Sequence record: PZ402305.1
Origin: a phage
Reading direction: 5' to 3' (one strand)
DNA: 64,000 nucleotides
Positions 2,520 to 62,613 of the stretch are shown in pieces. Position 1 is the stretch's first letter. Each line of letters starts with the position of its first letter. Position numbers and translations under genes: made by a program. Below the pieces are notes generated by a model. The model searched no databases. It saw nothing but the letters and a program-made list of their open reading frames with translations, and had not been told where the DNA came from.

Positions 2520-2711
2520 ATGGAAACCATCTCCTACCTGGAATCGAATAACATGTTTTTTGCGCCCGTTGATGAAATCATCGAAGCATTAAACAACGAG
2601 GAAGGGATCAAAGGTTTATCTTATAGCCAACTTTTAGGAATGGTTGCAGCAAATGAAGAGCTTGCTTACTATGTTGAAAATTTTGATGAAGCTGTAATCT
2701 TTACAAAATAA
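2520..2711 (+). CDS. hypothetical protein (63 aa)
   Basis: Track ORF directly downstream of cassette 5. Confidence 0.5.
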   Translation: METISYLESNNMFFAPVDEIIEALNNEEGIKGLSYSQLLGMVAANEELAYYVENFDEAVIFTK

Positions 2712-2714
2712 TCC

Positions 2715-2771
2715 TTGATCTAATCTCTTAGATAACTTATATTTAATGCGTAGGGCGGCAATGGTGCCGCC
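2715..2771 (+). promoter_or_regulatory. PeSL-like cassette 6: TTGATC-N17-TATATT plus GTAGGGCGGCAATGGTGCCGCC
   Basis: Precedes ATG at 2790. Confidence 0.55.
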
Positions 2772-2789
2772 GATAATGAGGAAAGTAAA

Positions 2790-3089
2790 ATGGAAACTAT
2801 CGCTATTGTTACCGTAGAAAAACTGGTTGTTGGTGATGTATTCGCGTTAATGGTGCCTAACAGCAGCAAACTGGGCGCTTATGAAGTAATGGATCATAAA
2901 AATGAATCATTTGGCGACGGTTGCACAATGGCGGTAAAATCTTTAAAGGATGGAATCATCCGCCAGGCTAACTGGCACAAAGGGAATCAAGTCGGTTTAA
3001 TATCAGCTAATTTCTTGCCAGAAGAGCAAACGTTAGACCAACTATCAGGCGGTAAGACGTTAGCCGAGCTACTGGAAACAGCGATCTAA
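2790..3089 (+). CDS. hypothetical protein (99 aa)
   Basis: Track ORF downstream of cassette 6. Confidence 0.5.
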   Translation: METIAIVTVEKLVVGDVFALMVPNSSKLGAYEVMDHKNESFGDGCTMAVKSLKDGIIRQANWHKGNQVGLISANFLPEEQTLDQLSGGKTLAELLETAI

Positions 3090-3097
3090 TCAACAAA

Positions 3098-3113
3098 GGG
3101 GCGGCAACGCCCC
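3098..3113 (+). other. intercistronic RNA stem-loop with GNRA tetraloop (GGGGCG-GCAA-CGCCCC)
   Basis: Perfect 6-bp GC stem, no U-tract; a second similar hairpin (GGGCG-GTAA-CGCCC) sits at about 3383-3396. Confidence 0.4.
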
Positions 3114-3133
3114 ACATCAGAAAGGAAAAGATT

Positions 3134-3370
3134 ATGAGTATTGCAACAGTATTAAACGCCGTTAAAACCGCTGAATCATCCGGCTTGCATGTTGAGCTTA
3201 TAGATCAACCAGGTGGCGATCTCCTTGTCCAGGTTTACCCGCCGAAAGTAGGGGATGATCATTATTGGTGCTATTCTGATACGTTCGAACAAGTAGACAC
3301 GAAAGCGATCACGGCTTTTATTTTAAAAGCTATTGAAGAAAATAACTTTCATTATAACATCAATCAATAA
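3134..3370 (+). CDS. hypothetical protein (78 aa)
   Basis: Track ORF. Confidence 0.45.
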   Translation: MSIATVLNAVKTAESSGLHVELIDQPGGDLLVQVYPPKVGDDHYWCYSDTFEQVDTKAITAFILKAIEENNFHYNINQ

Positions 3371-6706: not shown

Positions 6707-7064
6707 TATTCCGTTGAGCAGTGCAACATTGCTTCGCTTCTATAAAGCATGGATTGCCAACTATCCTGCAATGAATCGCACAACGAGTGGCTTATGTGGT
6801 TGTCTGGTAGATTATGTAAATGATTTTGTTGGTGAGACAACCAGAGAAGAAGATAGAAGATGGCGGGATAGTTTGTTGGACCGTTTGAAATATGAAATGA
6901 GGAAACAATTTACATGTGCAGGGCTGGACTACAATCTTCCGTTCAATACAGATTGCATGGATTACCTTTCAGAGTGTATAAACTTGGCGTGTCATACCAA
7001 CACGTTACGTCTTCAATGGGTGAAAGACAGAATTGAAGATGCAAATAATGCTTGCATTGAATAA
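6696..7064 (+). CDS. small Cys-containing protein, paralogous family member 2
   Basis: Tandem to member 1; LLRFYKAWI, SGLCGCL, AGLDYNLPFN, LQWVKDRIED. Confidence 0.6.
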   Translation: MTNSIPLSSATLLRFYKAWIANYPAMNRTTSGLCGCLVDYVNDFVGETTREEDRRWRDSLLDRLKYEMRKQFTCAGLDYNLPFNTDCMDYLSECINLACHTNTLRLQWVKDRIEDANNACIE

Positions 7065-59116: not shown

Positions 59117-59597
59117 TCTAGCCTCCTAAACGCGTCTCTGACGCACTTTTTATATATAAGATGATAAATCACCTTACCTAGTAAGTAAACTTGCTCTACG
59201 AGCCTCTTATGAAGCTTATGTTATAAGCTATACTATTGCTACCTGTTTAAGCAAGGTTTTGCACACAGAAAATAATTTTTAATAAAACTCTTGACTTTTG
59301 TGTTCGAAGTATGCTACCCTAGAAATCTATTAACGAGCGCAGCGAGTTAAGGTTTTAGGTTGTTGATGTAGTACTCTGTACTCAAGTACTGTACTCCGTA
59401 CTAGATTAATAATTATTAAATATTAATAATAAATAATTACTAGATCTAACAAACAGGTACAGTGTATCAGAACTGGTACGTACAGATCAACTTCTATCGA
59501 TTAAAAAATAAAATAATAAATTATTATAAATAATACTTGATCTATAGATCAGTATGAAGTACAGTACGTAACATCTTAACAAGAATGGAGGTGTGCA
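59117..59597. promoter_or_regulatory. divergent intergenic control region with GTACT repeats and AT-rich palindromes
   Basis: Five GTACT copies at about 59371-59402, palindrome TTAATAATTATTAA, GTACAG repeats; lies between divergent gene trains. Confidence 0.45.
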
Positions 59598-60336: not shown

Positions 60337-60366
60337 TTGACAAACGTATCCTTCATATGTTAGGAT
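60337..60366 (+). promoter_or_regulatory. sigma70-type promoter with extended -10 (TTGACA-N18-TGt-TAGGAT) for the RNA/tRNA cluster
   Basis: Same TTGACA...TGn...TAnnnT class recurs at about 60924, 62657 and 63092; a TTGACA-N18-TATAGT promoter plus GTAGGGCG box sits at about 61891-61934. Confidence 0.45.
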
Positions 60367-60377
60367 ACGTTCATCAA

Positions 60378-60570
60378 GTGTGGTAACAGGGTCGTTGACT
60401 CTTGTTAAGAGGGGCTTGCACTGCGGTAGTGTTAGAGACTACTTCTTCAGAGGTTAGCTACCAAAGAGGAAAAGGAATAGTCTCGGCTCAAGAACTTTTA
60501 CGCTGAAAGTTGGGCTTGGTCTTAGAGAATGTAGCGGTTCTCTACAATCGTCAGCGTCTCTGTTACCACA
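60378..60570 (+). ncRNA. candidate structured RNA (about 190 nt) closed by a 10-12 bp long-range stem
   Basis: GTGGTAACAG at about 60380 pairs with CTGTTACCAC at about 60559; no ORF; directly precedes the first tRNA. Confidence 0.35.
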
Positions 60571-60574
60571 TTTA

Positions 60575-60646
60575 TGGCCCTGTAGCTCAATGGGAGAGCT
60601 GTCGGCTCATAACCGATAGGTAGCTGGATCGAAACCAGCCAGGGCC
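60575..60646 (+). tRNA. tRNA with CAT anticodon, tRNA-Ile2 (lysidine)-like
   Basis: Acceptor GGCCCTG/CAGGGCC, loop CTCATAA, encoded CCA; resembles bacterial tRNA-Ile2. Confidence 0.7.
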
Positions 60647-60651
60647 ACCAA

Positions 60652-60723
60652 CGTCTTTATGGTGTAATGGATAGCACAGGAGTCTTCTAAACTCTTAGTC
60701 AAGGTTCGATTCCTTGTAAAGAC
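60652..60723 (+). tRNA. tRNA-Arg (TCT)
   Basis: Acceptor GTCTTTA/TAAAGAC, loop CTTCTAA, T-loop TTCGATT, CCA. Confidence 0.7.
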
Positions 60724-60775
60724 ACCAGAACATTTTAACATGAATTAGCTCAAGTGATTTGAACCCACTACTGAT

Positions 60776-60896
60776 CATGGTGGCAGAGAATGAGGCAAGT
60801 ATGTCAGACATTATAAACAAAGGCCACGGTTATATTAGAAGACATAAATGCTCGAAGAGCACCGTTCGTGGAGAACGGGGGTTGGTGGAGTCACCA
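60776..60896 (+). ncRNA. second candidate structured RNA (about 120 nt)
   Basis: ATGGTGGC at about 60776 pairs with GTCACCAT at about 60889; track ORF 60759..60950 here is probably spurious. Confidence 0.3.
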
Positions 60897-60961
60897 TTCA
60901 TGGTAAAATGTTTTAAAAAACTATTGACAACAAACCTTATTTTATGTTAGATTATAAGTAT

Positions 60962-61049
60962 GGAAGGGCAAATCGACGTGGCGACGAAAACGGTCTTGAA
61001 AACCGCCGAGCTTGAAAGAGCCTTGGGAGTTCGACTCTCCCTCCTTCCG
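60962..61049 (+). tRNA. tRNA-Ser (TGA), type II
   Basis: Acceptor GGAAGGG/TCCTTCC, loop CTTGAAA, long variable arm, T-arm GGGAG-TTCGACT-CTCCC, G73, CCA. Confidence 0.7.
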
Positions 61050-61056
61050 CCAGATT

Positions 61057-61139
61057 GGTAGATTGGTGAAATGGTAGCCACGACAGTTTGCTAAACTGTA
61101 GTCGGAAACGGCGTGTAGGTTCGAGTCCTACATCTACCG
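61057..61139 (+). tRNA. tRNA-Ser (GCT), type II
   Basis: Acceptor GGTAGAT/ATCTACC, loop TTGCTAA, long variable arm, G73, CCA. Confidence 0.75.
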
Positions 61140-61273
61140 CCAAGTTCTTTTTAATATAGCTTACTTTAATAGAGTAAACTTTCGGCAGATGGCCCCCCAC
61201 CATCTTACCGATAACTCATAGTTAGTGGTGTGAACACTGGCTATCTTAAAAAGAATTTAAATATTAGTATTTA

Positions 61274-61358
61274 GGTGAGTTAATTCCGTAGGGGTAGCGG
61301 GGCAGACTGTAAATCTGTTATCATTGCGATTCGGGTGGTTCGACTCCATCACTCACCA
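61274..61358 (+). tRNA. tRNA-Tyr (GTA), type II
   Basis: GGTGAGT...GCAGACTGTAAATCTGT...ACTCACCACCA; close to the bacterial tRNA-Tyr pattern. Confidence 0.8.
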
Positions 61359-61367
61359 CCAAATTAA

Positions 61368-61450
61368 GATGAGTTGGCTGAATGGTTTAAGCGGCGGACT
61401 GTTAATCCGTGTTCGAAAGAACGATATAGGTTCAAATCCTATACTCATCG
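61368..61450 (+). tRNA. type II (Ser-like, G73) tRNA whose canonical fold gives anticodon GTT (Asn)
   Basis: Acceptor GATGAGT/ACTCATC, 3-bp D-stem, loop CTGTTAA between GCGGA/TCCGT, GNRA-capped variable arm. Confidence 0.45.
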
Positions 61451-61532
61451 CCAGAATTATGGACTTGTAGAGTTAAGGTAAACCCCCAGTCGCCAAGAGG
61501 CTTCTGGAATTGCAGGTATCGAATCCTGCCGA

Positions 61533-61604
61533 GTCCCAGCTTTGCTCCTATAGTATAATGGCTATTACAACGGTTTTGTAATCCGTGGATCTCTGTTCGA
61601 TTCA
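61533..61604 (+). tRNA. tRNA-Thr (TGT)
   Basis: Acceptor GCTCCTA/TGGGAGC, loop TTTGTAA, T-arm CTCTG-TTCGATT-CAGAG, CCA. Confidence 0.7.
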
Positions 61605-61931
61605 GAGTGGGAGCACCAACACAACATTAAGGGCACTGTGATTGATCGTCGTATCCTGTGCACAAGGTCTGTTCGAAAGACAGTGTTCTTAGTATTGTGT
61701 TGATCACAAAAAGAGTCACCTGAAACTTGACCGGAGTAGGGTTGGATGGGGTAAAAGAAGAAGCGGCTCTCCCATCGACAGCAACGAAGAATAATATTTG
61801 ACTTTGGTTTTGTATTATTTTAAGTTAGCTTACCGAACGTAGGGCTAGTCACCCAAAGGGATACTCGTCACTGTCCCACTCAATAAAACTATTGACAACC
61901 AATAGTAAAGTGTAGTATAGTAAAGATGTAG

Positions 61932-62002
61932 GGCGTTCTTGGTGTAGCGGTAGCATTCCGTCCTTCCAAGTCGGCGGCACGAGTTCGATCCTCGTAGAAC
62001 GC
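61932..62002 (+). tRNA. tRNA-Gly (TCC)
   Basis: Acceptor GCGTTCT/AGAACGC, loop CTTCCAA, T-arm ACGAG-TTCGATC-CTCGT; D-arm weak. Confidence 0.55.
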
Positions 62003-62103
62003 TCCAAATTATTTAATAAAGGGTTGCCAGAAAACTTTCTCTTTTACTCATGGTTTTCTCCTTCTCTCACACCTCTTCTGGTTGCCCTTCATTAAATGAT
62101 TTA

Positions 62104-62176
62104 TTGGTTTGTAGTGTAGTTAGGTAGCACACGACACTTTGACTGTCGTAGGTTTGGTTCAAATCCAGACAGACCA
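62104..62176 (+). tRNA. tRNA-Gln (TTG)
   Basis: U1:A72 and G73 (Gln identity), stem CGACA/TGTCG with loop CTTTGAC, CCA. Confidence 0.7.
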
Positions 62177-62184
62177 GCCATATA

Positions 62185-62258
62185 ACGGAATTTAGCTCAG
62201 TTTGGTAGAGTGTACGCTTTGGGAGCGTATTGTCGCAGGTTCGAATCCTGCAATTCCG
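62185..62258 (+). tRNA. tRNA-Pro (TGG)
   Basis: Acceptor CGGAATT/AATTCCG, loop TTTGGGA, T-arm GCAGG-TTCGAAT-CCTGC, A73, CCA. Confidence 0.75.
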
Positions 62259-62267
62259 ACCAATTAA

Positions 62268-62338
62268 ATGTTTCGTAGTTCAATGGTAGAACCCACGACT
62301 GATAATCGTGAGACACAAGTTCGATTCTTGTCGAAACA
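62268..62338 (+). tRNA. tRNA-Ile (GAT)
   Basis: Stem CACGA/TCGTG with loop CTGATAA; T-arm ACAAG-TTCGATT-CTTGT; CCA. Confidence 0.65.
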
Positions 62339-62419
62339 ACCAGTTTCCCGTTAGACTTACAGGATAAGAGTTCCACAGCTTATTGTGATGCTGGTTCGAA
62401 TCCAGCACGGGATACCTAA

Positions 62420-62495
62420 TAGCGGGATAGAGGAGTCTGGTCGTCCTCGCCAGTTTCATATGCTGGAGATCATTGGTTCAAATCCAATTCCCGCC
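62420..62495 (+). tRNA. tRNA-Met (CAT), initiator or elongator undetermined
   Basis: D-stem GAGG/CCTC, stem CCAGT/GCTGG with loop TTCATAT, T-arm ATTGG-TTCAAAT-CCAAT, 1:72 mismatch, CCA. Confidence 0.5.
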
Positions 62496-62613
62496 TCCAA
62501 ATATCGCTTGCCAGCGGTATCTTTGAAGACCTTGCCTGGTTCCTTCTAAGATGGAGGGGTGCGACTCCTTAACGCACAATTATAATAAAGCATTTCAAAT
62601 TAACAGTATTTAT

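Follow-up and report, generated by a model that had tools for sequence, protein, structure and literature searches.

Two conserved structured RNAs fitted into the tRNA operon junctions of phAPEC8-like coliphages

The window, i.e. the whole 64,000-nucleotide stretch of phage DNA that was analysed (record PZ402305.1), is by its sequence the genome of a Phapecoctavirus, a phAPEC8-like coliphage of the Stephanstirmvirinae, and the 661 bases around the locus were 99.2-99.7% identical to the best-matching phAPEC8-like genomes. A tRNA cluster occupies positions 60576-62499 of the + strand, and two structured elements, designated E1 and E2, are found at its start together with the genes for tRNA-Met(CAU) and tRNA-Arg(UCU) (Table 1). 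The number of tRNA genes in the cluster was 10 by ARAGORN, 11 by Rfam and higher by relaxed ARAGORN. Default ARAGORN missed tRNA-Ser(UGA) and tRNA-Tyr(GUA), the former having its best Rfam score, below threshold, with the tRNA-Sec model. Two more weak tRNA-like elements with aberrant anticodon arms and without an encoded CCA were also seen in the cluster, these two and the two missed tRNAs together occupying 60963-61052, 61278-61361, 61461-61537 and 62338-62416. Besides, the heptamer AGTCACC was present in five copies in the 64-kb window, three of them (60889, 61714 and 61847, + strand) in the 2.3-kb tRNA cluster; one copy is inside the invariant P7 hairpin of E2, which is a post-hoc observation.

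Sigma-70-type promoters were identified by consensus scan. Promoter P1 carries 10 of the 12 consensus matches plus the TG extension, and its -35 hexamer and TGTTAxGAT -10 element are kept in phiWec188 and PsgM04F; it is predicted to drive E1, tRNA-Met, tRNA-Arg and E2, with transcription probably starting at about 60373-60376. Promoter P2, which is also kept in the divergent phiWec188 clade and in PsgM04F, is predicted to open the next tRNA transcription unit and to set the 3' limit of the E2 module. No terminator was predicted on the + strand between 60376 and 60953. The original prediction had placed two RNA segments between promoters and tRNAs, and this arrangement was borne out, with promoter P1 preceding E1 and E2 lying between tRNA-Arg and promoter P2. 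Upstream of the early + strand genes, the AT-rich divergent intergenic region 59120-59597 was seen to hold clustered GTAC-containing repeats (GTACTCTGTACTCAAGTACTGTACTCCGTACTAG) and GATC-containing repeats, and it may serve in regulation or as an origin.

Table 1. Features of the start of the tRNA cluster and of the related modules further along it (positions in the window)
Feature	Position	Strand	Description or basis
Promoter P1	60337..60366	+	TTGACA at 60337, 18-nt spacer, TG-extended TAGGAT at 60361-66
E1, structured RNA, 198 nt	60376..60573	+	fold, z-score, covariation
E1 closing helix (P1), 22 bp	60376-98 with 60551-73	+	
E1 hairpin P2	60399-413	+	
E1 hairpin P3	60418-432	+	
E1 hairpin P4	60435-484	+	
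E1 hairpin P5	60485-516	+	
E1 hairpin P6	60524-543	+	
tRNA-Met(CAU)	60576..60650	+	ARAGORN, Rfam, sequence
tRNA-Arg(UCU)	60653..60727	+	ARAGORN, Rfam
E2, structured RNA, 188 nt	60727..60914	+	fold, inverted repeat, covariation
E2 closing helix (P1), 18 pairs, one mismatch	60727-45 with 60896-914	+	
E2 P2	60750-54/60758-62	+	
E2 P3	60765-69/60779-83	+	9-nt loop ACUGAUCAU at 60770-78
E2 central domain, variable	~60795-60858	+	
E2 P6	60862-67/60873-78	+	
E2 P7	60884-87/60892-95	+	
Promoter P2	60924..60953	+	TTGACA, 18-nt spacer, TG-extended TAGATT; consensus scan
E3, stem-enclosed module	61143-61258		between tRNA-Ser(GCU) and tRNA-Tyr
E4a, hairpin, ~22 paired stem positions	61617-61702		starts inside tRNA-Thr CCA
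Third sigma-70-type promoter	61892-921		TG-extended -10; consensus scan
E5, ~25 bp stem around ~45-nt CU-rich loop	62006-62102		z = -5.46

E1 was predicted to fold into five internal hairpins enclosed by a closing helix with one 1x1 mismatch. A 204-nt stretch holding the element reached a minimum free energy (MFE) of -77.3 kcal/mol with z = -5.35, and none of 200 shuffled sequences folded as well; the MFE of the - strand was only -54.9 kcal/mol, and a weaker fold on that strand is expected because E1 is rich in G-U pairs. The element fits closely between its neighbours, as its 5' end lies 0-3 nt from the inferred transcription start and its 3' end 2 nt before tRNA-Met, the 5' end of that tRNA (the RNase P site, with U at -1) being 2 nt past the last E1 pair. 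The first segment had originally been proposed to be a structured RNA, and the conserved fold, the z-score and the covariation given below agree with this; the 10-12 bp closing helix ascribed to it (GTGGTAACAG/CTGTTACCAC) is real but forms only the core of the 22-bp helix of a larger element.

E1 was present in one copy per genome in 71 phage records, all of the Phapecoctavirus type, a few of which carry host labels that look doubtful by their sequences. These are Pseudomonas phage PsgM04F (OR584014.1), Campylobacter phage B15 (MG065650.1) and Acinetobacter phage ABPW7 (OP562383.1), all close Phapecoctavirus matches, and PsgM04F resembles the phiWec clade. Six E1 copies (phiWec179/181/188/190 and PsgM04F) were only ~81% identical. 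Between the window and phiWec188, 43 columns of E1 differ and 18 of these differences form nine compensatory pairs, and RNAalifold likewise gave 69 pairs with nine compensatory ones. Across nine sequences, which sample two clades of one genus, 98.1% of the pair cells were standard as against 41-49% when the partners were slid, and 10 pairs showed double changes as against 0-2; with three sequences, 98-99% of the cells were paired as against 40-49%. No part of E1 is more conserved than its closing helix, in which 18 of the 22 pairs never vary; the near-invariance of this helix therefore points to constraint at the level of sequence and leaves covariation uninformative there. In sequence as such, E1 and E2 are no more conserved than the neighbouring DNA, their identity between the window and phiWec188 being ~81-82% compared with ~78% for the 1.3-kb region. 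A search for remote homologs of E1 with a covariance model found none in the Seunavirus, Justusliebigvirus, Certrevirus, rV5-like, T5-like, T4 and 05F01 loci, and a pattern scan for E1 gave no match.

E2 begins within the preceding gene, its first paired base being the final A of the encoded CCA of tRNA-Arg. The longest inverted repeat here measured 17 nt (60729-45/60896-912) and the fold extends this pairing to 60727 and 60914; the z-score was -3.99 and 0 of 200 shuffles were equally stable. A second segment of about 120 nt closed by 8 bp had been put forward, and it does contain a structured RNA, but one that had been wrongly delimited, as E2 measures 188 nt, the last 18 of which lie beyond the predicted region. 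The 8-bp helix itself, in our reconstruction most likely a pairing of ATGGTGGC (60778-85) and GTCACCAT (60891-98), is not conserved, the Seunavirus counterparts being AUCUGUGC and GUCACCAU, and its bases belong to two local hairpins of E2, P3 and P7. Covariance and closing-helix conservation in related phages, proposed at the outset as the check, thus supported E1 and the true E2 helix but not the 8-bp helix.

The homologs of E2 reach further, and were found in single copies in Phapecoctavirus, in Seunavirus (the PVP-SE1 group of the Vequintavirinae) and in Klebsiella phage 05F01. The Seunavirus homologs, in PVP-SE1, SSE-121, KE23, 4MG, GAP31, the divergent 'Salmonella phage 19' and three metagenome contigs, were ~71% identical. 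The 05F01 homolog, in a record that earlier searches had not listed, was recovered with the E2 covariance model at 122.7 bits and E = 4e-35, the E-values of these models being rough on account of a short calibration. IMG/VR scans gave two loci only, and a metagenome scan added only close relatives of Seunavirus and Phapecoctavirus.

In a MAFFT alignment of ten E2 sequences, 93.3% of the cells paired as against 36-45% with slid partners, and 17 pairs, some of them in the closing helix, showed double changes as against 4-9. On addition of 05F01, 24 of 57 pairs in the resulting 11 sequences were compensatory, 19 of them outside the closing helix, in an alignment that was fitted to the model structure and so leans towards it. 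This lean is common to model-fitted alignments, and the counts from the ten-sequence MAFFT alignment of E2 and from the three E1 sequences agree with theirs. Compensation can be followed in single helices, as P3 reads CCACU/GGUGG in the window and CACAG/CUGUG in Seunavirus, and P6 reads CCGUUC/GAACGG in the window and CCACAC/GUGUGG in 05F01, while the P7 hairpin is invariant across the homologs. Unpaired motifs (UAGCUCA, the P3 loop ACUGAUCAU, GAAUGAG and GGUGGAGUCACC) are near-invariant at an overall identity of ~70%. The compensatory substitutions show that the predicted + strand folds of both E1 and E2 are maintained.

Both the sequence of E2 and its fold are retained across three phage lineages between which the neighbouring genes differ, and in all three it fits between two tRNA or tRNA-like genes. 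In 4MG and GAP31 the CCA of a tRNA-like element directly precedes E2, and tRNA-Leu(UAA) follows 3-4 nt behind its 3' end; in 05F01 the match (6830-7026) fills the gap between tRNA-Met, which ends at 6832, and tRNA-Leu(UAA), which starts at 7023. The tRNA-like element directly upstream of E2 in GAP31 (locus 1885-1993) is unannotated; besides the acceptor GCAGGGT/ACCCTGC and the T arm GGTGGTTAGATTCCACC it shows a long extra region, and it terminates in CCA. We also observed that in SSE-121 (locus 516-1010) an HNH homing-endonuclease gene is inserted exactly between E2 and tRNA-Leu, that a 485-nt gap without annotation occupies this position in PVP-SE1 (locus 2686-3171), and that 4MG, GAP31 and 05F01 are without the HNH insertion. 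E1 and E2 are thus conserved, strand-specific and single-copy structured RNAs fitted precisely into the junctions of a tRNA operon.

The other long spacers of the cluster follow the same design, as E1, E2, E3, E4a and E5 all consist of a helix of ~17-25 bp closing a structured interior. The closing helices start 0-2 nt from the CCA of the upstream tRNA or at the transcription start, and end a few nucleotides short of either the next tRNA or an AU-rich stretch and a promoter, while most tRNAs in the same clusters are only 2-8 nt apart. E3 was 85-89% identical among T5-like Salmonella phages (S124, SPC35), rV5-like phages, Justusliebigvirus and Phapecoctavirus, with BLAST match borders that coincide with its closing helix; in a T5-like phage it follows a promoter and adjoins tRNA-Tyr, in phi92 it stands between tRNA-Ser and tRNA-Lys, and its fold covaries (40 pairs, six compensatory). 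That E2 and E3 are common to distantly related phages in different tRNA contexts argues for selected genes and not filler. Apart from these, E4a is followed by ~190 nt of non-coding sequence (E4b, to 61890) which is 85% identical in phiWec188. The loop of E5 has CUCCUUC and CACCUC, which are of the same sense as the anti-Shine-Dalgarno tail of 16S rRNA, and E5 could be a sponge or a pyrimidine-tract binding site.

We compared E1 and E2 with known RNA families and elements. Searches of the Rfam 15 families, at the gathering score and also at E <= 10, returned tRNA hits only, leaving riboswitches, ribozymes, 6S, Y RNA, ROOL and GOLLD unmatched, and at any strength there was no hit inside E1 and no + strand hit inside E2. 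Relaxed ARAGORN (70-80% thresholds) found no tRNA cloverleaf or T loop on the + strand of either element, and at these thresholds gave extra weak tRNA-like elements elsewhere in the cluster. BLAST of both elements against 5,426 complete E. coli genomes found no match, and a scan of 185,579 bacterial and archaeal genomes with the E2 core pattern gave 0 hits. In GenBank the E1 and E2 regions are blank or called hypothetical proteins in more than 70 genomes.

Three candidate features of the elements were rejected. A perfect 9-nt complement between E2 (UUAGAAGAC, 60835-43) and tRNA-Arg(UCU) (60682-60690, i.e. the anticodon loop and two stem bases) had suggested a specifier-like role, but it is not conserved in phiWec188, is of a length expected by chance and is probably a chance match. 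The 3' arm of E1 is complementary to E2 (60778-89) over 12 nt, but this match is disrupted in phiWec188 and irrelevant in Seunavirus, which is without E1. A hammerhead-like reading of CUGAUCA…GAGAAUGAG was discarded since the first motif is a hairpin loop and not a junction.

The explanation towards which we lean, with somewhat better than even confidence, is that E1 and E2 are two unrelated structured non-coding RNA genes in an early tRNA operon which are matured via tRNA processing and act in trans; the reading that suits them best is that of autonomous small-RNA genes whose maturation relies on tRNA processing. Host RNA polymerase would transcribe them together with the tRNAs from the sigma-70-type promoters. 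RNase P, in cutting the following tRNA at its 5' end, would create the 3' end of E1, and likewise that of E2 in Seunavirus and 05F01, while the 5' ends would come from the 3' maturation of the preceding tRNA by endo- and exonucleolytic trimming or from transcription initiation. These steps are inferred from the general maturation of tRNAs in E. coli. By pairing both ends, the closing helix would probably protect the excised RNA, shielding it from exonucleases and from 5'-end-dependent decay, and in E1 it would keep RppH and RNase E from reaching the 5' triphosphate; with its 18-22 bp the helix may in addition serve RNase III as a cleavage site. Once released, the RNAs would build up early in infection and affect a host or phage factor in trans by way of their conserved unpaired motifs. 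The notion of a processing leader, raised for both segments in the original prediction, holds in part, as E1 is literally the 5' leader of tRNA-Met.

Of the possible functions of E1 and E2, one in trans during infection appears to be the likeliest. As the elements travel with phage tRNA genes, their target would most plausibly lie in the takeover of translation, tRNA or RNA decay, or in counter-defence. Phage tRNA clusters are now viewed as a counter to host tRNA depletion and anticodon nucleases. Precedents, by analogy only, are offered by counter-defence tRNAs (PMC11464382) and by the anti-defence non-coding RNA pseudo-ToxI carried by an rV5-like phage (PMC3475682).

The alternative that survives best, to which we allow a modest chance, is that E1 and E2 are cis-acting processing or insulator spacers in which only the closing helix matters and the interior is a tolerated loop. 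The helix would then bring the 3' end of one tRNA near the 5' end of the next and be cut by RNase III, as in rRNA operons. The helices of ~17-25 bp with which E2, E3, E4a and E5 begin 0-2 nt away from a CCA end, the greater conservation of the closing helix than of the rest of E1 (18 of 22 pairs unvarying) and helix lengths that suit RNase III all speak for such spacers. However, the internal helices are kept by compensation (10 pairs in E1 and 19 pairs outside the closing helix in E2) and the long unpaired motifs of E2 are near-invariant in three lineages; moreover, the modules move between different tRNA neighbours, and the 2-8 nt that separate most tRNAs of the same clusters make a spacer of 190 nt unnecessary. 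The trans-acting role is favoured over a processing spacer because internal helices and unpaired motifs are under selection, because the modules are portable between tRNA contexts and phage lineages, and because spacers of 2-8 nt suffice elsewhere in the same clusters.

A bolder extension of the trans-acting role, to which we assign only a small chance, is that E1, E2 and E3 are portable RNA accessory genes exchanged together with tRNA genes, each neutralising or hijacking a specific host factor, e.g. by serving as decoy to a ribonuclease of defence or decay, with E2 perhaps being a small counterpart of ROOL or GOLLD, a particle that self-associates through its near-invariant palindromic kissing loop ACUGAUCAU. 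If true, the three would stand for a new class of RNA-based elements of host takeover or counter-defence, whose maturation borrows the processing of tRNAs.

It is improbable that E1 is a cis-regulatory leader (riboswitch, thermosensor or attenuator) controlling the downstream tRNAs. Its place directly after a promoter, its length of ~200 nt and its multi-branch fold would suit such a leader, but no alternative terminator/anti-terminator structure was found and no terminator was predicted (60376-60953, + strand), E1 adjoins a tRNA and not an ORF and is without an Rfam match, and E2 and E3 show the same architecture in non-leader positions. Decaying remnants, be they scars left by homing-endonuclease cassettes, degenerate tRNA genes or MITE-like elements bounded by terminal inverted repeats, appear highly improbable. 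Terminal inverted repeats are indeed present, the clusters do contain tRNA-like pseudogenes and genes for HNH endonucleases, and the modules occur in unrelated phages; yet the compensatory evolution amounts to purifying selection on the fold and relaxed ARAGORN gave no tRNA-like signal. Under the criteria for MITEs, each element was found in one place per record, with no paralogs and no flanking direct repeat (target-site duplication), and no similarity was detected among the spacer modules of the cluster or among their terminal repeats. Finally, that E1 and E2 encode small proteins is scarcely credible, for while ORFs of 25-63 aa overlap them (up to 37 aa on E1 and one 63-aa TTG ORF on E2) and several GenBank records carry 'hypothetical protein' features here, the substitutions in E1 show no preference for a codon position (6/9/6 and 7/6/8), and stops or frameshifts disrupt the E2 ORF, which would extend across promoter P2, in phiWec188, KE23, 4MG and GAP31, so that the initial description of both segments as ORF-free was essentially right.

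E1 and E2 add two compact and well-delimited RNA families with covariation support. The phages of E. coli, Salmonella and Klebsiella that carry them are easily cultured and many are therapy candidates, which makes them tractable systems for asking what the RNAs of tRNA clusters do. No prior description of RNAs of the E1 or E2 type was found in the papers searched on T5, rV5, PVP-SE1 and phAPEC8.

Known systems resemble E1 and E2 in different respects. The RNAC and RNAD of T4 are made from its tRNA cluster and their functions are still unknown (PMC9697503). Like E1 and E2, these species 1 and 2 RNAs (rnaC/rnaD) are small non-tRNA RNAs encoded in a phage tRNA cluster on the strand of the tRNAs, with ends that abut tRNA genes; they measure 119-139 nt, whereas E1 and E2 are longer and have much longer closing helices. 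The covariance models of E1 and E2 gave no significant hit in T4 68000-75000, where the best score was 8.7 bits (E = 0.6). Furthermore, rnaC has a tRNA-like T arm (GGTTCGAATCC) beside its terminal stem; as to a T arm or acceptor-like end by which tRNA enzymes could mature the RNA, rnaC shows CCGGGTTCGAATCCCGG, whereas neither relaxed ARAGORN nor the Rfam tRNA model found a counterpart in E1 or E2. The likeness to the small stable RNAs of T4, of which the two segments had been thought possible equivalents, is thus one of location in a tRNA cluster and not of homology or of a tRNA-like T arm.

ROOL and GOLLD, two kinds of structured RNA whose function is unknown, are carried by phages and prophages, often close to tRNA islands (PMC12286853). 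They are ~3-4 times larger than E1 and E2, and their Rfam models were unmatched here. The 9-nt P3 loop of E2 contains the 6-nt palindrome UGAUCA and, by analogy with ROOL or GOLLD, could mediate self-association through a kissing loop.

Among host RNAs, functional spacers of E. coli tRNA operons are comparable, e.g. the 3' external transcribed spacer of glyW-cysT-leuZ, which is a sponge of sRNAs; such spacers are released in the processing of the tRNA operon and act in trans. They are short and act by simple base pairing, whereas E1 and E2 are multi-helix folds of ~190 nt. RNase III processing stems flank rRNAs and the early RNAs of phage T7, and like E1 and E2 they form a long helix from flanking sequences at a gene boundary in a polycistronic transcript. 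Compared with the roughly two turns of double-stranded RNA of an RNase III stem, the predicted folds have 22 pairs with one 1x1 mismatch in E1 and 18 pairs with one mismatch in E2. As this setting is common to a known kind of RNA, while no homology to T4 rnaC/rnaD, no tRNA-like feature and no match to the Rfam models of ROOL and GOLLD was found, E1 and E2 are therefore rated as two new families among the non-tRNA RNAs of phage tRNA islands.
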